In this document: piece by piece, positions 14,662 through 64,000 of the stretch
How positions within the stretch are numbered: position 1 is the stretch's first letter
Layout of the letters: the number at the start of each line of letters is the position of its first letter
Assembly (NCBI GenBank): GCA_017466275.1
Contig: JAFTUL010000013.1
Span: forward strand, 39,343-103,342
Direction of reading: 5' to 3'
From: Clostridia bacterium
GTDB lineage: Bacteria; Bacillota; Clostridia; UMGS1883
DNA length: 64,000 nucleotides
The notes under the pieces: generated by a model
The model's database searches: none
Told to the model about the DNA's origin: nothing
The model's input: only the letters and a program-made list of their open reading frames with translations
Position numbers and translations under genes: made by a program

Positions 14662-14711
14662 AATGTATAGAAACCTTTAAAAAAGGAAACAAAGTTCCTC
14701 GGAGGCGAGGA

Positions 14712-14822
14712 GGCCCTTTGCCATTTTGAACGCCAAAATGGCGAAAAGCGGTGGGGAATCGGAACCCCCGCGTTTTTGGTACTTTTGGCTCCCAAAAGTA
14801 CATCGTCCCCTGCTATTCAGCA
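14712..14822. repeat. short copy of modular stem-loop repeat family (modules rcZ-rcY-rcX-HP1)
   Basis: Matches the reverse complement of modules in the 56.2 kb and 32.8 kb copies. tttgccattttgaacgccaaaatggcgaaaagcgg is exact. Hairpins ggggaatcggaaccccc, gtacttttggctcccaaaagtac and ctgctgaatagcag are present. Confidence 0.7.
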
Positions 14823-14865
14823 GAAGTTTATGCTTTTTTAAAAGCTTTTCTTTTATTTTTCCTTG

Positions 14866-17910: not shown

Positions 17911-17937
17911 GAGTCCATAACGGACTCCTTTTTTGTA
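17911..17937 (+). terminator. lysC rho-independent terminator
   Basis: ggagtccataacggactcc followed by TTTTTTG. Confidence 0.75.
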
Positions 17938-17946
17938 TGTGTTTTT

Positions 17947-18045
17947 CTACGAACAAACTTTACCTCTCGCTGTACCTTTGTACAGCTTCGGGTACTCCCT
18001 TCGGGTTCAGTTTGTCCGTTCTGCAACATTTTCTCGTTGCCATTT
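17947..18045 (+). repeat. inverted-repeat element copy 1 (3' flank of cysK)
   Basis: ~75% identical to the reverse complement of 19019..19117. Compensatory changes preserve the internal hairpins. Confidence 0.7.
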
Positions 18046-18063: not shown

Positions 18064-18990
18064 TCATTTTGTAAACAATTCTGTGCTTAAATACCTCTCT
18101 CCGCTGTCGGGAAGAAGAACTACAATCGTTTTTCCCTTGTTTTCTTCTCTTTCGGCAAGGATTTTTGCACCGTGGAGAGCCGCACCTGAGGAAATTCCCA
18201 CAAGGAATCCCTCTTTTGTGGCGAGGGAACGGCCTGCAGTAAAGGCATCCTCTGCCTCAATTGTGATGATTTCATCACATATAGCTTTGTCAAAGGTGTC
18301 GGGAATAAAGTTTGCACCAATTCCCTGAATTTTATGGCTTCCGCTTCTGCCCTCGGTTATAAGGGGGGAGGAAGCAGGCTCAATCCCTACAATTTTTATG
18401 TCGGGATTTTTTTCTTTCAGATATTTTCCGGTACCGCTTATTGTTCCGCCCGTGCCGATGCCTGCAACGAATATATCTATTTTACCCTCGGTGTCTTCCC
18501 ATATTTCAGGACCTGTCGTTTCATAGTGGGTCTTAGGATTGTCGGGGTTTATGAACTGTCCGGGAATGAAGCTTCCCTCATATTTTTCTTTAAGCTCATT
18601 TGCTTTTTGCACAGCACCATTCATTCCAAGGCTTCCCTCGGTCAGAACAATTTCCGCACCGTAGGCTTTGAGAAGATTTCTCCTTTCAACGGACATAGTG
18701 TCGGGCATTGTGAGGATTAGCTTGTACCCCTTTGCCGCCGCAACGGATGCAAGTCCTATGCCTGTGTTTCCGCTTGTTGGCTCAATAATAACACTGCCCT
18801 CTGTAAGAAGCCCCTTTTTCTCCGCTTCCTCAATCATTTTTACGGCAATGCGGTCTTTACTGCTTCCTGCAGGGTTCATACATTCAAGCTTGGCAATGAT
18901 TTTTGCCCCGAGATTATTCTCTTTTTCATAATTGCAAAGCTCTAAAAGAGGGGTTTTCCCCACAAGCTCCGTTATCTTTTTATAAATCAT
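18064..18990 (-). CDS. cysK: cysteine synthase A (O-acetylserine sulfhydrylase)
   Basis: PLP-lysine motif SSKDR. Full-length CysK similarity. 308 aa. Confidence 0.9.
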   Translation of the reverse strand: MIYKKITELVGKTPLLELCNYEKENNLGAKIIAKLECMNPAGSSKDRIAVKMIEEAEKKGLLTEGSVIIEPTSGNTGIGLASVAAAKGYKLILTMPDTMSVERRNLLKAYGAEIVLTEGSLGMNGAVQKANELKEKYEGSFIPGQFINPDNPKTHYETTGPEIWEDTEGKIDIFVAGIGTGGTISGTGKYLKEKNPDIKIVGIEPASSPLITEGRSGSHKIQGIGANFIPDTFDKAICDEIITIEAEDAFTAGRSLATKEGFLVGISSGAALHGAKILAEREENKGKTIVVLLPDSGERYLSTELFTK

Positions 18991-19018: not shown

Positions 19019-19117
19019 AGAATGGGAGAAAGTAGTGCAGAATTGACAAACTGAACCCGCAGGGGTTACCCGAAGGCGTACGAGGGTACGTCGAGCGGTG
19101 AAGTTTGTCGATAGCAA
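19019..19117 (-). repeat. inverted-repeat element copy 2 (5' leader of cysK)
   Basis: Reverse complement aligns with 17947..18045. Lies between the likely cysK promoter and the start codon. Confidence 0.7.
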
Positions 19118-19254
19118 AACGAAGTAATAATAGGAATTTGCAAAAAGCAAATTCCTACTAAAAACAATCAAAGAAAAAATGTTTTCGCATTTAATAAAAG
19201 TAATCAATATATATTCTTTTCGTTTTGCGGTCGGTGCTGCTTTATCACATTCGC

Positions 19255-31316: not shown

Positions 31317-31502
31317 ATGCAAAATGAAGAAGCAATGTGTTACATAACCTACGCCGTACCTGCAAGACTGCTCCCGAATCTTCCCTTGGGAGAGAGAGTT
31401 ATGCCGATAGAAAGTGTAGAGGAAGAGCCGCCAATGCTTTACCCCGAGGGGTTTATGGCCGATTGGTTTTTAAATGGGCGTTTTCCGGAGGATGAAGAAT
31501 AA
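31317..31502 (+). CDS. small acidic hypothetical protein (61 aa)
   Basis: GAGGTGA RBS 5 nt upstream. No similarity recognised. The stop directly abuts a repeat copy. Confidence 0.35.
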   Translation: MQNEEAMCYITYAVPARLLPNLPLGERVMPIESVEEEPPMLYPEGFMADWFLNGRFPEDEE

Positions 31503-31506
31503 AACA

Positions 31507-31645
31507 AAATTCCGCTGAGTAGCGGAGGACGATGTGCTTTTGGGAGCCAAAAGATTTTATAGGGGAACAGGGGGATTGCGATTTCCCCCTTAGCTCCCCT
31601 ATGACCCCATAACCCCTTGAAACGCCCTCGCAGGGGCGTAATATT
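31507..31645. repeat. short copy of modular stem-loop repeat family (HP1-X-Y-W modules)
   Basis: ccgctgagtagcgg, cttttgggagccaaaag, gggggattgcgatttccccc and acgccctcgcaggggcgt are hairpins homologous to modules at 56.2 kb. Confidence 0.7.
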
Positions 31646-31958
31646 TATTGGGCGTGGTTTTCTTTAACTGTCGGGTTTTGTTTTTGAAACTGCCTTGCCT
31701 TTGCGACATCTAAATGCATTGATAAACTTATTATCAGGCATTTATAAATTCTGTCCGCCCGCAGAGGAAAATGATGCGGACAGAATTTTGTCGGTCGGCT
31801 TCGTTGTTTCAAAAACAGTAGTTTGCGAGTATAAAAAACAGAAAAATTCAAAATATAAAAGCGTATAGCATATTAAAACTCTATAAGATACTTCCTAAAA
31901 AATAGTCAATAGAATATACTAATAATACTTAATCTATGCTATTTGCTTGGAGGATTGT

Positions 31959-32282
31959 ATGGAAAAGAAGGCTTTAGGTAAAAAATTACGTGAGGCAAGA
32001 AACAGCAAAAAATATACGCGTGAAGTTCTTGCAGAAAAAGCTGATATAGGCGTTATGTATCTTGGAGAAATTGAAAGAGGGGTAAAACTGCCCAGTTTGA
32101 AAGTTTTTATCAGATTAGTGGAAGCACTTGAAGTTTCTGCTGACTATATTCTCCGAAACGAATTATCTTCAGGGAAAGAGTATATCTTTGATGAAATGAC
32201 TCGAAAACTTGAGAATTTGACACCTCAACAACGAAAGACTGCGACAAGTATTTTAGACGCATATATTGATAATTTATCATAA
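31959..32282 (+). CDS. XRE-family helix-turn-helix transcriptional regulator
   Basis: Cro/C1-type HTH (…REVLAEKADIGVMYLGEIERGVKLPSLKVFIRLVEAL…). ATG after GGAGGA. 107 aa. Confidence 0.75.
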   Translation: MEKKALGKKLREARNSKKYTREVLAEKADIGVMYLGEIERGVKLPSLKVFIRLVEALEVSADYILRNELSSGKEYIFDEMTRKLENLTPQQRKTATSILDAYIDNLS

Positions 32283-32310
32283 GAGCTGAAAATTCAGCTC
32301 TTTTTTTATA
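32283..32310 (+). terminator. terminator after XRE gene
   Basis: aagagctgaaaattcagctcttttttt. Confidence 0.7.
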
Positions 32311-32408
32311 TTTAGCATATGTTTCGACAAAAATCGTCATCCCCTTGTGCTATAATAAGCATATAGCATACATTAAATGCTAATAGCTAATGAAAGGAAG
32401 AAAGAAAA

Positions 32409-32576
32409 ATGCCAATAGGAGTAGAAAAAAGATTAGACGAATTAGGAAGAGTTGTAATTCCAAAAGAACTTAGAGACTTTTATCATCTTAATGAAAAAGT
32501 AACATTGGTTGAAACAGAAAAAGGGATTTTAATAACAAATCCTCAGTATGTAATGGTTAAGGTTGAGGAAAAATAA
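32409..32576 (+). CDS. AbrB/MazE/SpoVT-family DNA-binding domain protein (55 aa, N-domain only)
   Basis: MPIGVEKRLDELGRVVIPKELRDFYHLNEKVTLVETEKGILITNPQYVMVKVEEK resembles the swapped-hairpin domain of AbrB (…VRKVDELGRVVIP.ELR…). Extended -10 TGcTATAAT upstream. Below the 60 aa cutoff, so absent from the ORF track. Confidence 0.75.
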   Translation: MPIGVEKRLDELGRVVIPKELRDFYHLNEKVTLVETEKGILITNPQYVMVKVEEK

Positions 32577-32582
32577 ACGAAA

Positions 32583-32622
32583 AAGACACAAAAAGGGGCA
32601 GGTCTCCTTTTTGTGTCTTTCT
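32583..32622 (+). terminator. terminator after AbrB-like gene
   Basis: gacacaaaaagg...cctttttgtgtc 12 bp stem followed by TTTCTGTTT. Confidence 0.7.
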
Positions 32623-32640
32623 GTTTGAGAAGAAAAGGTG

Positions 32641-32925
32641 GGTTTTGAGAAATTCTTTGTTGACTGGCGTAAAAATCGCTCGTATCAACTTCCTTTGCTG
32701 ACGAGCGATTTTTAGTCCGCAAGGAAATAAGTTTTCCTTTTAGGACGGCGACACCAAAACAAATAATTTCGAAAAACAAAACCATTTTTGTTATTAAGAA
32801 CAAGTATTTGCTTTCTTACGCCCCTGCGAGGGCGTTGAGGGGAGTGGGGAGAATCGCAACTCCCCACCGCTTTTCGCCATTTTGGCGTTCAAAATGGCAA
32901 AGGTCTCTGCGACTCCGCAGAATGG
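32641..32925. repeat. long copy R1 of modular stem-loop repeat family (L-W-Y-Z-HP1rc)
   Basis: 32641..32820 is the reverse complement of 56286..56465. 32818..32920 carries W (acgcccctgcgagggcgt), Y (ggggagaatcgcaactcccc), Z (cgccattttggcgttcaaaatggc) and ctgcgactccgcag. Confidence 0.8.
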
Positions 32926-33013
32926 CTTGCACTTGTGCAAAAAGTTTGAATTTTTTGCAACCAAAAAGGGAATCCAAAAACGAGGATTCCCTTTGTTGTA
33001 TTTAAAAAGTTTT

Positions 33014-36860: not shown

Positions 36861-36937
36861 TGGGTATCAGTCCTTTTGCTAAAAGGTATTTTGTCGAAAA
36901 ATTTGTTTTTGATTGCAGAAGTGCAAACTATTCTTCT

Positions 36938-37232
36938 TGAGCACTAAACTACGGCTTTTGCAAATTTTCTGTCGGCTACCGTGAAATTGCGAGCACCATT
37001 TTCCTCTGCTGGCGAGCAATTTCAGGCGAACAGGCAACTGAGTGTTGCCTTAAAGCCGGCGGTTCAAAGACGGAAAATTTACAAAAACGAAAACAATACA
37101 GTAAAAGAAAACCACGCCCGCAAAGGGACACGCCCCTGCGAGGGCGTTGAGGGGAGTGGGGAGAATCGCAACTCCCCACCGCTTTTCGCCATTTTGGCGT
37201 TCAAAATGGCAAAGCCCTTAATCGGCACCGAT
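36938..37232. repeat. copy R3 of modular stem-loop repeat family (M-W-Y-Z-end hairpin)
   Basis: ~90% identical to 56467..56766, including acgcccctgcgagggcgt, ggggagaatcgcaactcccc, cgccattttggcgttcaaaatggc and the terminal taatcggcaccgatta hairpin. Confidence 0.8.
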
Positions 37233-37264
37233 TAGTTTTGTTTCTTTTTAAAAGAACCTTATCA

Positions 37265-38494: not shown

Positions 38495-38780
38495 TTATAA
38501 ACATTCCTTTATTGGTTGTTTTAGCCAAAAGGGAATAATCCGAACTCCGATTTCCAGAGGCGGATTTCCGTTTTTGCTTTGTTAAAATACTCGGAAATGC
38601 ATCAGCATTCCCTGCGTTTTTGCCTCGCACTCTCCGCAAATCCGCTATCTGAAAATTCTATGACCTGAAACGGATGGAATTTTGAGCAGATTTTGGTGCA
38701 GAGGACGAAGATAGGCTGTCGCCTTTCAAGAACGATAAGCTAAAAGATGCCGAAATTCCATCGTTTAAGGCGGGTTCGGA

Positions 38781-56090: not shown

Positions 56091-56177
56091 TGAAAACTCA
56101 CCTCAAGGATATTTTACTCTCTTTTACGATTGTGCGTATACGCACACGCGTGCTACACTGCAAGATTTGCAAACAAT

Positions 56178-56766
56178 TTCTGCGGAGTCGCAGAGGACGG
56201 TGTACTTTTGGGAGCCAAAAGTACCAAAAACGCGGGGGTTCCGATTCCCCCGCACCCCTGAAACGGCCTCGCAGGGGCGTAAAAAAGCAAATACTTGTTT
56301 TTAATTACAAAGATGGTTTTGTTTTTCGAAATTATTTGTTTTTGTGTCGCCGTCCTAAAAGGAAAACTTATTTCCTTGCGGACTAAAAATCGCTCGTCAG
56401 CAGCGGAAGTTGATACGAGCGATTTTTACGCCAGTCAACAAAGAATTTCTCAAAACCCGACTGTTCTACCGAAGCACTAAACTAAGGTTTTTGCAAATTT
56501 TCTGTCGGCTACCGTGAAATTGCGAGTATTAGTTTCCTCTGCAGGCGAGCAATTTCAGGCGAACAGGCAACTGAGTGTTGCCTTAAAGCCGACGGTTCAA
56601 AGACGGAAAATTTGCAAAAACGAAAACGATACATTAAAAGAAAACCACGCCCAAGAAATATTACGCCCCTGCGAGGGCGTTGAGGGGTGTGGGGAGAATC
56701 GCAACTCCCCACCGCTTTTCGCCATTTTGGCGTTCAAAATGGCACTCCCCTAATCGGCTCCGATTA
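56178..56766. repeat. largest composite copy R2 of modular stem-loop repeat family (HP1-X-Y-W / rcL / M / W-Y-Z-end hairpin)
   Basis: 56180..56280 carries the ctgcggagtcgcag, gtacttttgggagccaaaagtac, gggggttccgattccccc and acggcctcgcaggggcgt hairpins. 56286..56465 is the reverse complement of 32641..32820. 56467..56766 is ~90% identical to 36938..37232. Confidence 0.8.
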
Positions 56767-56845
56767 AATACCTGCAATTTCTTGCAATAAAAAACAAAAT
56801 TTTGCAATAAAAAATACTTTTTTGCTAAAAGTATGCGAAAAACTC

Positions 56846-56875: not shown

Positions 56876-57120
56876 ATAATAAGCAAACGATTTCTTTGGA
56901 ATCTTAATGCAAATATAGGACCACTCTCATGGGAGTCGAGGCCATACGGACAGCCGGGTCCACTGCCTATTGATTGAGTTAAAAGCTCAGTTTTATAAGT
57001 TGGTTACTTTATAACCGAAATGCGTAATTGCGCTAACTTGTGAAATGGTCAATAAGAGTAGTGACTCTGTATGTCCAATATCTTAAATTTTCTTAGGAAA
57101 TTTGTCTTTTTTGAGATATT

Positions 57121-57179: not shown

Positions 57180-58667
57180 ATGGCAAACAACGTAATCATT
57201 GAACTTAAAAATGTATCCAAGCATTTCGGGCAGACGTATGCTGTGGAGGATTTCAACCTTTATGTCAAGAAAGGGGAATTTGTAACCTTTTTGGGACCAA
57301 GCGGATGCGGAAAGACTACCACTCTCCGAATGATTGCAGGATTTGAGCTTCCTACGGGCGGACAAATTCTCCTAAACGGGGAGGATATTTCCCTGCTTCC
57401 GCCGTACAAACGCCCTGTAAATACTGTATTCCAGAAGTATGCTCTTTTTCCTCATATGGATGTGTATGACAACATTGCTTTCGGTCTGAAGCTGAAGAAA
57501 ATTCCCGACGGGGAAAAGACGAGAAAGCTTACCAAAGAGGAAATTGACAAAAAAGTCAGGAAAGCTCTTAAAATAGTTGACCTTGAAGAGTACGAAAACC
57601 GTGATATATCCACCCTTTCAGGCGGTCAGCAGCAGAGAATTGCCATTGCCCGTGCTATTGTAAATGAGCCTGAAATTCTTCTCCTTGACGAGCCTTTGGG
57701 TGCTCTCGATTTGAAAATGAGAAAGGATATGCAGCTTGAACTTAAGGAAATGCACAAGAAACTCGGCATCACCTTTATATACGTAACTCACGACCAGGAG
57801 GAGGCACTTACTCTCTCCGACACGATTGTGGTTATGAAAGACGGTATGATTCAGCAAATCGGCACTCCCGAGGATATTTATAACGAGCCCAGCAATGCCT
57901 TTGTCGCAAACTTCATCGGTGAAAGCAATATTTACAGCGGTACGGTGACGGGCGACAAAAAAGTCAGATTTATAAACCACGTTTTTGATTGTGTTGACGA
58001 ATTCCCGAAAAATGAAAAGGTTGATGTGGTAATCCGTCCCGAGGATGTTCATATTACAAGTGCTGACAGCGGTATGGCAAAAGGCAAAATTGTCAGCAAA
58101 ATTTTCAAGGGCATCCACTACGAATACATAATGATGGTTGGCAGAAACGAGCTTGTCATAGTTGATACAAGGGATTTGAATGTGAACGAAACCTACGGCT
58201 TTGACATTGAGCCTGACGGTATTCACATTATGAAAAAGGAACTTACCTCCAATATCTACAATGATGCCTACATTGACAAGGAAAACCGTGTTGTTATTTC
58301 CGAATGTCCCTTTGAATGTGACATTACTTCTCTTGTGCAAGGCTCTATCGTTGACAGTGAGGGCTATGTTGTAGGCCCTGACGGTACACGTTACGACTTT
58401 ACTGATGCGGATGTCCGTGCAGAAATCGGACTCAAGGATATTGAAATCCTCGACGACGAGGAAGCAGGTGTCGTAAAGGGTGAGATTGTTTCCATTATAT
58501 ATAAGGGTGACCATTATCAGCTTACAATCCGCACTCCCGAGGATGAAGATTTTGTTCTTGATACTGAATATACATATGACGAGAACGACCTTGTAGGTCT
58601 TAATGTACGCCCTCAGGACATAAAGCTTACATTGAAAGGAGAGGCGAAGAAATATGCAAAAAAATAA
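57180..58667 (+). CDS. potA: spermidine/putrescine ABC transporter ATP-binding protein PotA with extended C-terminal TOBE region
   Basis: Walker [10 protein letters not shown], signature LSGGQQQR, Walker [12 protein letters not shown]. 495 aa, ~120 aa longer than a typical PotA. Confidence 0.85.
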
Positions 58668-61683: not shown

Positions 61684-61735
61684 AGGAAAAAGCACTATCG
61701 AATGATGGTGCTTTTCTTATTAAAGAGAAATATTA

Positions 61736-61969
61736 TTAATGTGTTGGGAAAGATGTTGGATTTTCTGTAATGCCACATATATAATTCATATCTACATTAT
61801 AAAAACGGGCGAGTATAATGGCACTTTCTATAGGAATACGAATTTTTCTCAGTTCATAATCTGCATATGTCCGTTGTCCAATATTGAGCAGTTTCGCAAT
61901 GTCTGATTGCGTTTTATCATTATCCTCACGCAACTGACGGATTCTTTCAGCAATATCCATAATAAACAC
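61736..61969 (-). CDS. XRE-family HTH transcriptional regulator (77 aa)
   Basis: HTH_3 pattern (…KTQSDIAKLLNIGQRTYADYELRKIRIPIESAIILARFYNV…). Confidence 0.7.
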   Translation of the reverse strand: MFIMDIAERIRQLREDNDKTQSDIAKLLNIGQRTYADYELRKIRIPIESAIILARFYNVDMNYICGITENPTSFPTH

Positions 61970-62077
61970 CTCAGAATTATTCTACTATAGCGGAAATAAC
62001 TCTATTGACTTTTAGCGGAATTTACTCTAAAATAAAAGAGGTAGAATATTTGATTTTAATAAAACAAAAAGAAAAGG

Positions 62078-64000
62078 AGTAATGAGAATGAAAATTAAAA
62101 GAGTCGTTTCAGTAATTACCTTACTATTATTGCTTTTTGAAAGCAAGATATTAACTTTTTCTGAAACAGTAAAAGCAGAAGCAAATAGTGCGCCGGTGTT
62201 TATTGATGTTCCAAGTGACCATTGGGCAAAAACACAAATTGATAGTTTTGTGAAAAAAGGAATTGTCAATGGATATGCTGACGGTAGTTTCAAGCCCTCA
62301 AACGGGGTTACAAGAGAGGAATTCTGCAAGCTTCTTGTTGCGACATTTGATGTTCAACTTGAAGTGCCGAATGTTTCAAGTTTTGCAGATATTGATAAAA
62401 ACAGATGGTCTTATCAGTATATTGAAACCTGCAAAGAGTTTTTTCCAGGATACATAGATAAAAGTGATGGTACAAATAAATTTATGCCTACACAGTACGC
62501 TGTCAGAGAAGATATTGCCTCTGCAATAGCTAAAGCAATGGGATGTAGAGAAGACAGTGCAAATAATATTAATTACGCAATATCTAAATTTAGTGATGGA
62601 GAAGCCATTAATCATAAATTGTTGCCATATGTAAGTATTGCTTGTGAAAAGGGTCTTATAAGTGGTTATCCTGATGGCTCATTTGGTCCGCAAAAGGGTA
62701 TAACCCGTGCGGAAACTGTCGCACTGTTGGAACGTGCAGTAAAACAAGCGGAAAATAGTGAAACAAATGAAAAAAACAATACTGTACCTACGGATGATGT
62801 AAATGCCAAGATTAATGAAGAAGATATTCCAGTTATATATGAAAATGAAAAGCATGATTTGATTATGATTGAACCCGAGACAGGAAAAAGCTACTTGCTG
62901 ACAGAAGAAAGTAGTTGTTGTAGTACAGAAAATGCACTCAAAGCTGGTAAACATGAAAACTTTTCTGTTTCAGAAGATGGAAAAAGAATCTTTTTTATAG
63001 GCGGATGGGAAGATAAAAAACTCTATTACAGAAACATAAAAAGATTCAACAACAATGCTGAGAAAAATGTAGTGATTGACACAGGTGTTAAGTATTTCAA
63101 AATAGCAAAAGACGGTAACAGTGTTATTTATGTTAAGGATAAGAGCCTATATTTTAGTGACCTTGTAGCAAGTAAAAAGTTGTCTGATGGTAGATATGGA
63201 AGCAATCTAAATTTATATTTTATACCAATGTATTCAGAAAATTCTAAGACCTTCGTATATAAAGATGAAGCATATTACATATGCGGGACTGAAAATAATG
63301 ATAAGCCGGAGAAAATAGACGGCGATATTCTTCCATATTATAATAGCTATGAGCAGCATATTTATCCTTCTCTTTACACATATTATAATACTGTTTATTA
63401 TGTAAAGAGAGAGGAAAACACTTCTTATGACAATAATTTTTTATCTATTTATGAAAAAACATATCTTGGAAAGGCTGTAAAAGTTGCAGAGAATGTCAGT
63501 GATGCTTTTGTTGTTGACGGAAACCTTTTTCTTTGCAAAAAAGACGACGTAGTTAGAGAAGATGCTATTATACAATCATCATTATTTATCTATGATGGAA
63601 AAAGTTTAAAAAAGATGATAGAGAATGTTCAGGAAATCAAATATGATTTCAAGGGTGGATTATTAGAAGCTTATTTGTGGGATGATGTTTTGTCAGGTGC
63701 CTTTAAGTCTGATGGCAGTTTGGTAAAATTCGACCCTCTCCAAAACAACTTTAAGGGGACGGTTATATATTTTGATGAAAAGTATGCATACACAGTTGAT
63801 GAGGACAGTCATGAACTTTACAAATATAATTTGAATAGCGAGAGAAATGTGCAACTCTTAACAGAAGAAAAACTTTTGGACAAAGTATATTATTCTGTTG
63901 GATACAGATGGGTACCTAATGGGGCTATCATTTATACAGAAGATAATGGTACACACGAATTGATGACAACACATTTCATTGAAAACGGCAACTGTACAAA
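62078..64000 (+). CDS. SLH-domain cell-surface protein, N-terminal 640 aa (3' end truncated by window edge)
   Basis: AAAAGGAG RBS 8 nt upstream. Signal peptide. Three SLH repeats (FIDVPSDHWAKTQIDSFVKKGIVNGYADGSFKP…, FADIDKNRWSYQYIETC…, …YVSIACEKGLISGYPDGSFGP…). No stop codon before the window end. Confidence 0.7.

Follow-up and report, generated by a model that had tools for sequence, protein, structure and literature searches.

The window analysed here, a 64,000-nt stretch of contig JAFTUL010000013.1 of a Clostridia bacterium (assembly GCA_017466275.1, positions 39,343 to 103,342 of the forward strand), contains at 32622-32940, behind a gene for a 55-aa AbrB-like protein, one solitary copy (type A) of a non-coding unit of ~300-320 nt that recurs elsewhere in the same DNA. 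The unit is probably a lineage-specific, non-coding, non-autonomous and structured interspersed repeat, similar in kind to the REP, BIME and BOX elements of other bacteria and forming an independent family. It has a modular anatomy with conserved base pairing and conserved loops; it lies in intergenic regions, mostly behind genes, in both orientations and in part as dimers; its presence differs between strains, its modules are exchanged between copies, and it is found in a narrow lineage. It is considered non-autonomous because its flanking genes (PFK, MutS2, GDH, RsmI-like, ACT-domain protein, ComEC, ROK kinase and HD-domain protein) are housekeeping genes, none of them a transposase. A Pfam scan of the flanking genes and small open reading frames (ORFs) found no transposase, and no ORF lying next to the other copies, in the 8-21 kb available from each relative, resembled one by eye.

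An inverted-repeat search of the window returned two arms, 32622-32864 and 56234-56476, that are 90% complementary over 243 nt without gaps, and gapped blastn aligned 32631/32640-32931 with 56168-56467 (~300 nt, 87-88%, E = 1e-97). The full match, in which 32622-32931 is the reverse complement of 56168-56476, far exceeds chance expectation and is not a chance repeat. An earlier, sequence-only reading of this DNA had recorded 32641..32820 as the reverse complement of 56286..56465, which was borne out, the match being longer than the 180 nt then noted. The same reading made the element begin 65 bp past the AbrB-like gene, and this start has to be moved: homology begins at ~32622, which is 46 nt past the stop codon, and overlaps the tail of the AbrB terminator hairpin. 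This terminator-like hairpin (aaaaagacacaaaaagg / cctttttgtgtcttt; 32583..32620, plus strand) has its 3′ arm within the segment missing from the alleles that lack unit A (see below).

Alignment of the three types recognised in the window (A, B and C) gave one order of modules for every 300-320-nt unit: a 27-nt leader, a core of ~130 nt, an A-rich linker, and the hairpins W, Y, Z, T and V. In the copy at 32.6 kb (hereafter unit A; all parts on the plus strand) the leader occupies 32622..32640 and is homologous to the 27-nt spacer joining the heads in B+A dimers. The core is a three-way junction (32645..32774; covariance-model match 32641-32777, 135.5 bits) in which helix P1 (32645-32661 paired with 32758-32774) and helix P1b (32666-32671 paired with 32748-32752) enclose two further helices, H1 and H2. 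H1 (32671..32713; aaaaatcgctcgt...acgagcgattttt) has a 13-bp stem and the 17-nt loop atcaacttcctttgctg, while H2 (32715..32746) consists of an outer stem (gtcc/ggac), an inner stem (aaggaaa/tttcctt) and the loop TAAGT. The A-rich linker (32775..32818) is poorly conserved and separates the core from the hairpin cluster. The latter comprises W (32819..32834; cgcccctgcgagggcg), near-invariant in sequence and with little covariation; Y (32844..32867; gtggggag-aatcgcaa-ctccccac), with a conserved loop; Z (32876..32898; gccattttg-gcgtt-caaaatggc); and T (32906..32921; tctgcg-ACTC-cgcaga), the complement of the GAGT-loop hairpin of the inverted copies. The W-Y-Z and ACTC-loop hairpins described earlier are all present, and reading of the sequence adds one more, the outermost module V (32927..32940; ttgcac-tt-gtgcaa), which recurs at each end of the dimer at 56 kb and heads the unit at 37 kb.

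Five full units and one hairpin cluster without a core are distributed over five sites of the window (14.7, 31.5, 32.6, 37.0 and 56.2-56.8 kb). A second type A unit (56170..56478, minus strand; found by repeat search, blastn, nhmmer and covariance model) forms the right half of a head-to-head B+A dimer of ~620 nt (56170-56780), made of two inverted units, the other half being a type B unit (56464..56780, plus strand). A solitary type B unit lies in the PFK-MutS2 spacer (36931..37249, plus strand); both type B copies were detected by repeat search, nhmmer and covariance model. The solitary and diverged unit C (31497..31835, minus strand; nhmmer and covariance model) occupies the spacer between the gene for a 61-aa protein (p61) and an XRE gene, and has an orthologous copy in the related locus L005 (L numbers designate the loci and contigs compared). 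The core-less cluster (14681..14838, no strand assigned; blastn and nhmmer) consists of two clusters joined head to head via a chimeric Y hairpin. Alignment of the window copies showed types A and B to be homologous, and the diverged type C likewise. Units therefore come in three arrangements, namely singly, as ~620-nt head-to-head B+A dimers, or as core-less clusters, and in either orientation. Hairpin Y has six true copies in the window, against 0.07 chance matches expected, and the conserved H1 loop has five, one in each core.

The flanking GDH gene places the host among uncultured Clostridia genomes from ruminant-gut metagenomes (labelled Clostridia, Oscillospiraceae or Acutalibacteraceae). 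Iterated nhmmer searches converged on 25 matches, which, with the five repeat sites in 64 kb, supports the earlier proposal that the sequence belongs to a dispersed repeat family. With nhmmer and the core covariance model, copies were located in the window species, in L002, L003, L005 (four units) and L008 (partial), and on four small metagenome contigs (L135, L141, L145 and L156); none was found in L004, L006, L007 or 73 more distant GDH loci. The core covariance model, run over 1.48 Mb of related loci, returned nothing beyond the nhmmer copies. A scan of public metagenomes with an 18-mer of hairpin W rendered 81 loci, nearly all of them chance matches from soil or sediment, with true copies only in L135, L141, L145 and L156, the family being rare in that material. 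A separate scan of viral contigs with this 18-mer gave a single match (L082), which nhmmer did not recognise as a copy and which was discarded as chance. Distant-mode blastn against plasmids and phages gave no match. Rfam returned nothing over any unit when the whole window was searched at the gathering threshold, and gave chance-level matches alone when the repeat regions were searched at E up to 10. Only a few related metagenome-assembled genomes carry the family, and its copies occupy at least 12 unlinked intergenic sites in several species, the flanking genes never being co-duplicated. Unidirectional or convergent genes border all four L005 units and four of the five sites in the window; the 56-kb dimer, with divergent genes on its sides, is the exception.

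The conserved quantity in these units is the base pairing of the modules, not the sequence of the stems. When each of 13 distinct copies was folded independently by minimum free energy, all 13 gave the identical three-way junction, closed by the long-range P1 (up to 17 bp) and the short P1b and carrying H1 and a two-part H2. Across the core (12 sequences), 84% of cells were paired, compared with 66% after shuffling (0 of 500 shuffles reached 84%) and 36-49% in slid controls, and both sides had changed in 35 of 44 pairs. For the W-Y-Z-T cluster (15 sequences) the corresponding values were 87%, 73% and 40-52%, both sides having changed in 14 of 26 pairs. Compensatory change was recorded in 10 of the 12 pairs of H1 (95% paired) and in five of the eight of hairpin Z (98% paired); within the cluster, covariation is found in Y, Z and T, whereas W is almost invariant. 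RNAalifold, applied independently, found compensatory change in 30 of 40 predicted pairs. Across the family the loops are better conserved than the stems, with ATCATTTTCCTCTGCnG in H1, T[A/G]AGT in H2, AATCG[C/G]AA in Y and ACTC in T. Compensatory substitutions have kept pairing at 84-87%, which neutral decay would not be expected to do. Three other accounts of the fold were considered and rejected: a conserved small ORF read from the reverse-strand H1 loop (AGAGGAAAATGATG), the start codon and frame of which are not conserved between subtypes; a hammerhead or other small ribozyme in the junction, for which there is neither a conserved catalytic core nor an Rfam match; and formation of the junction hairpins by fold-back of flanking DNA, the T hairpins being identical at unlinked loci.

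The units are accessory and turn over between otherwise near-identical strains. Alleles were compared among contigs encoding an AbrB protein 100% identical to that of the window. Units C and A are both present in the window, L166 and L169, and also in L165. In L164, unit A is present and unit C absent, the p61-XRE gap measuring 176 nt as opposed to 456 nt and containing a native-looking p61 terminator; L170 lacks unit C with the same gap, and its contig ends short of the unit A site. The reverse is seen in L167 and L168, which have unit C and lack unit A; in these the AbrB-GDH spacer is 71 nt long, as against 437 nt (~437 nt also in L164-L166 and L169, which carry unit A), and holds one bidirectional terminator common to both genes. 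The same 71-nt spacer without unit A is found in L172, a contig too short to reach the unit C site. At the PFK-MutS2 spacer, the near-identical strain L179 has, between flanks that are 100% identical, a full B+A dimer in place of the single B unit of the window; in the more distant L006-L008 this spacer spans just 14-35 nt, and in L005 it holds a unit oriented opposite to that of the window.

The boundaries of these alleles are not simple. In the allele free of unit A, the 3′ arm of the AbrB terminator is missing too, and 6 nt (GTAAAA) replace ~370 nt; this allele may therefore have arisen by secondary deletion and need not be a site that was never occupied. At two sites, a segment has been replaced between the filled and the empty allele, and no clean target-site duplication was found in three filled/empty site comparisons or at the dimer ends. 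The candidate duplications CAAAAAGGG (unit A site) and AAAACAAAATTC (unit C site) were rejected, as the empty alleles do not fit simple duplication. The sequence-only reading had taken the elements to be inserted, not ancestral leaders or trailers, and had proposed comparison with element-free relatives. Such relatives exist (L167, L168 and L172), with an identical AbrB protein, which supports the view that the unit is no ancestral leader or trailer of its neighbours; their junctions are not clean, a segment having been replaced, and gave no precise insertion boundary with a target duplication. A composite transposon with the XRE-AbrB pair carried between units C and A was also rejected: the two units are lost independently, and in L005 the gene pair is accompanied by unit C but not by unit A.

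Recombination between copies has left several traces. In L165, a type C core is combined with the standard W-Y-Z cluster. At the GDH-p61 locus of L003, from which the XRE-AbrB pair is missing, a B+A dimer is found whose B arm ends in the outer cluster of type C (hairpins Z and T). At the L179 site, the 18-nt leader differs at six positions within otherwise identical DNA, a pattern characteristic of gene conversion with another dimer as the donor. The GDH-p61 interval (window 31503-33013; L002 4155-4736; L004 1401-3460; L005 11351-13336; L006 11351-14490; L008 11348-12558) is a hypervariable hotspot, for which the shared modules supply portable homology. A gene for a C_GCAxxG_C_C-like protein (~148 aa) is present there in L002, L004, L005, L006 and L008, and not in the window or L003; the XRE-AbrB pair is restricted to the window species and L005; and L006 additionally contains an IS3-type transposase pair and a Phd/Doc toxin-antitoxin pair. 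Many metagenome contigs terminate inside units, as would be expected of multicopy repeats.

Some copies have persisted for long. Unit C of the window shares 68% identity with the copy at the orthologous position in L005, the differences including compensatory changes, whereas the four-fold degenerate sites of the flanking genes are only ~50% identical. Unit A of the window and that of L003 are 94% identical, compared with 76-79% for the four-fold sites of MutS2, PFK and MurJ; a shared recombination tract is possible in this case because the adjacent GDH gene is also unusually similar between the two (89%). The p61 terminator of the unit-free alleles (L164 3373-3420; L002 4690-4740), aaaattccgcggag-caata-ctctgcggagtttt, has 10-nt stretches in common with both halves of hairpin T; from this likeness, it may be a collapsed dimer remnant, or T may have been derived from such terminators. 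The PFK-MutS2 spacer of L003 (7356-7504) contains ~150 nt of other GC-rich hairpins, e.g. ttaaggggacaccccttaa, which bear no relation to the family and may represent a second type of repeat.

REP/BIME elements and REPINs are known from Enterobacteria and Pseudomonas, where they are mobilised by RAYT tyrosine transposases. REP/BIME elements are imperfect palindromes of 20-40 bp with many extragenic copies, and in a REPIN/RAYT system a single-copy RAYT gene (an IS200-like Y1 transposase) is flanked by repeats. In BOX elements, boxA and boxC bracket variable boxB arrays (boxA-boxB(n)-boxC). The present unit resembles REP/BIME/REPIN elements in its GC-rich intergenic palindromes, mostly behind genes and of mosaic hairpin types, in its frequent inverted pairs able to form larger folds, and in the lack of a target duplication combined with vertical persistence in a lineage (PMC3733652, PMC3116915). 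REPs sit mostly between unidirectional or convergent genes, and REP palindromes bear an unpaired GTAG or CGTC tag at one end (PMC3733652). Hairpins W, Y, Z, T and V are palindromes of 14-24 nt, but they form part of a 300-nt unit with a large core; their flanks show no consistent GTAG or CGTC tag, GTAG appearing only within the loop/arm of a T variant (ccgctGAGTAGcgg). The unit differs from REPs in size as well (~300 nt with a 130-nt three-way junction, versus 20-40 nt) and in its host, a member of the Clostridia, whereas GTAG and CGTC REPs predominate in gamma- and alphaproteobacteria. With the BOX elements of Streptococcus pneumoniae and Streptococcus suis (and with RUP and SPRITE) it shares a modular composite build in variable combinations, a Gram-positive host, extensive structure, restriction to one species group, and strain-variable, slow-moving insertions, which in BOX are thought to affect co-transcribed genes (PMC3049150). 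It differs from BOX in having no tandem boxB-like module, a branched junction with conserved loops in place of one long stem-loop, and head-to-head dimers; the unit matched no Rfam family and nothing in plasmid or phage collections, and the likeness is one of behaviour only.

Two other kinds of element were compared. MITEs (Correia elements, Nezha, bcr1) are similarly small, non-coding, non-autonomous, multicopy, strongly base-paired and strain-polymorphic, but the hairpins of the unit are GC-rich rather than AT-rich, and it has neither a target-site duplication nor a matching insertion sequence. PATEs and the omega-RNA ends of IS200/IS605 elements (HEARO/IscB RNAs) are likewise multicopy structured non-coding elements of 150-300 nt, devoid of target duplications and terminal inverted repeats, and their hairpins are recognised as single strands. 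Elements derived from IS200/IS605 have subterminal hairpins on one strand, a fixed target tetranucleotide, an orientation biased to one strand and a TnpA or TnpB partner. In contrast to these, the unit has no Rfam HEARO or IS605-type match at E up to 10, no TnpA, TnpB or IscB gene adjoins any copy in view, its orientation is mixed within 64 kb, and no fixed flanking tetranucleotide was seen. As it departs from REPs (size, GTAG/CGTC tag), from MITEs (terminal inverted repeats, target duplication) and from BOX elements, the unit was assigned to no named family.

As a repeat of the REP/BIME/BOX kind, the unit would have been spread and reshuffled mainly by homologous recombination or gene conversion between shared modules, with natural transformation helping. 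The original dispersal may also have involved an enzyme encoded in trans, for example a RAYT or an IS200-like tyrosine (HUH) transposase, that acts on folded single strands without duplicating the target, and selection would keep the single-stranded fold. Behind a stop codon, the unit might act as REP and BOX elements do, as a barrier to 3′ exonucleases or read-through that affects the transcript 3′ ends of its neighbours; since the hairpins are palindromic, either orientation would set a stable multi-hairpin block there. Several points weigh against an interspersed repeat of this kind. No mobilising enzyme, such as a RAYT, was seen within the 64 kb of host genome, and the 56-kb site lies between divergent genes and hence not behind a stop codon. 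The polarity of the presence/absence polymorphisms is ambiguous, the allele without unit A possibly being a secondary deletion. Finally, the 130-nt junction, the 17-bp long-range helix and the conserved loops exceed any REP/BIME/BOX module, and look more like parts of a functional RNA.

This last resemblance leads to the alternative that the copies are a multicopy family of a structured non-coding RNA gene, or of a cis-acting RNA domain, with dispersal secondary. Here the junction and loops would act in trans or in cis, the C/U-rich H1 loop UUUUCCUCU, for example, possibly by pairing with Shine-Dalgarno sequences. The covarying long-range P1 and three-way junction favour it, as do loops better conserved than stems, the conservation of the unit C orthologue beyond neutral expectation, and the co-orientation of three consecutive L005 units with their flanking genes. 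The forward strand is also slightly more stable: summed over 13 copies, the fold energy was -607.5 kcal/mol (reverse strand, -569.2) for the core and -595.5 (-567.3) for the cluster, and -654.7 (-615.7) with slightly wider core boundaries, a preference of ~5%. However, the reverse strand gives the better fold for types A and C and for the solitary B unit at 37 kb, and the model-based core alignment contained 23 G-U versus 15 A-C cells, which reveals no clear strand bias. No conserved promoter was found ahead of the unit; the sole sigma-70-like match, seen by eye in type A, would place the start of transcription inside H1. Moreover, the units have no uniform orientation with respect to the genes beside them and point in opposite directions at one site in two species, strains lose copies without visible consequence, no Rfam family matches even at E up to 10, and a density of five units per 64 kb suits repeats better than small-RNA genes. 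Taken together, an RNA gene or RNA domain is a minor, though real, possibility. A smaller chance still is given to a bolder version, in which the unit encodes a new class of mobile structured RNA of ~300 nt, in which a junction with a conserved anti-Shine-Dalgarno-like loop precedes a series of hairpins. It could work in trans, either as a regulator or, by analogy with omega RNAs and bridge RNAs, as the partner or guide of a recombinase, and would explain both the higher conservation of loops than stems and the long retention at orthologous sites.

Module swapping and recombination are evident and the family is limited to a few close genomes, as would be the case if the copies were leftovers of segmental duplication and recombination among a few intergenic regions, with no mobility and no selected function. 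The number of unlinked sites (at least 12, in several species), flanks that were never co-duplicated, pairing held at 84-87% by compensatory substitutions, and contigs that break inside units, as high copy number predicts, make this improbable. Another idea is that the B+A dimer is a classical MITE derived from an insertion sequence with a DDE transposase, its hairpin clusters being long terminal inverted repeats and the solitary units broken halves. The ~620-nt dimer is indeed found at three loci (window 56 kb, L003 GDH, L179 PFK-MutS2), its inverted arms each end in a V hairpin, and an imperfect 8-nt direct repeat, (G)CAGAAyrGy, surrounds unit A. That direct repeat, however, overlaps the conserved 3′ arm of hairpin T, and is thus at least partly intrinsic to the unit; the dimer ends and the unit A and unit C junctions are without target-site duplications. 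No terminal inverted repeats were found on a single unit, the leader/P1 and T/V ends not being inverted copies of each other, and the inverted arms occur in the B+A dimer only because it is composed of two whole units. Solitary units are conserved and covary by themselves, and local hairpins covary within an arm, something that recognition of terminal inverted repeats by a DDE transposase does not need. Searches of 1.9 Mb of related loci and of plasmid and phage collections gave no related insertion sequence, and a MITE origin is quite improbable.

That the unit is a bidirectional terminator with hairpins serving the AbrB-like gene, as binding sites or as part of an antitoxin locus, is extremely improbable: type A H1 is bordered by A- and T-runs and the unit adjoins the gene, but H1 is a junction helix with a conserved 17-nt loop, the unit is missing in strains with the same AbrB protein, L005 has an XRE-AbrB pair without unit A, and the likely operator motif lies elsewhere. 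The perfect hairpin that had been called a bidirectional terminator is real, being helix H1, but the terminator role was not upheld. An intrinsic terminator consists of a GC-rich stem, a loop of 3-8 nt and a following U-tract, conserved as such; the A-run and T-run of H1 pair with each other to form the ends of the stem, the T-run is missing in types B and C, and H1 was not called in a terminator scan. H1 is not a conserved terminator.

The 55-aa protein scores below the cut-offs of PF04014 (22.9 bits versus 24.7) and TIGR01439 (23 versus 28.3), but matches the N-domains of SpoVT, AbrB and Abh in the PDB (E = 5e-4 to 8e-3; SpoVT/AbrB, 5e-4 to 2e-3), so that the AbrB/MazE-like domain named earlier, of the AbrB/SpoVT type, is plausible though sub-threshold. 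The gene indeed has no toxin partner; it is not an isolated orphan, however, as it follows an XRE gene (31959-32282), and this XRE-AbrB pair is conserved in L005. Of the 21 matches to the motif TATAGCATA (one mismatch at most) in the whole window (11.4 expected), five fall in promoter regions of the XRE and AbrB-like genes (31864-32370) and none in the units; these five are likely operator sites of the pair. The functional tie that had been suspected between repeat and AbrB-like gene was not sustained, with other copies flanking unrelated genes and TATAGCATA clustering in promoters, not in the repeat, and the unit seems to have no specific relation to this neighbour.

Other features were observed in the window. 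Just past the B+A dimer, at 56918-56969 (plus strand), lies an Rfam match to SpF59 sRNA / ldcC RNA (59.9 bits; gathering score, 37.2), ~210 nt upstream of an ABC-transporter ATPase gene (57180-58667). In the ROK-PFK spacer, a 210-nt segment (38567-38776) with a 6-bp direct repeat (AATCCG) at its ends is missing in the near-identical L179, and looks like a clean insertion with a target duplication; it is single-copy in all sequence compared and unrelated to the repeat family. A 110-nt inverted repeat (17926-18035 / 19026-19135; 75% complementary) surrounds a PLP-dependent enzyme gene (18064-18990) and overlaps two small ORFs without a Pfam match. At 61700-64000 the GC content falls to 33%, and an XRE gene (61736-61969) is followed by several small ORFs without a Pfam match; the stretch may mark the border of a prophage or genomic island. 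In L001 (1171-3549), L166 and L169, gene calling splits the 792-aa MutS2 gene into two ORFs (562 and 200 aa), probably through a frameshift or assembly error (tblastn, 99.9% over the full length).

Structured interspersed repeats have been well described in Proteobacteria and streptococci, and hardly at all in uncultured ruminant-gut Clostridia. The units break the short-read assemblies of these metagenome-assembled genomes and could be mis-annotated as terminators, small RNAs or antitoxin-associated sites; they are also usable as strain-typing markers. By serving as substrates for recombination, they reshape intergenic DNA and cause genes beside them to be lost or replaced, such as the XRE-AbrB pair and the C_GCAxxG gene, which differ between close relatives at this locus. 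Should the fold turn out to work as an RNA, or to be acted on by a new enzyme, its interest would be much higher. The family indicates that the uncultured Clostridia which dominate ruminant guts have REP/BIME-like elements of their own, with an unusually elaborate covarying fold.

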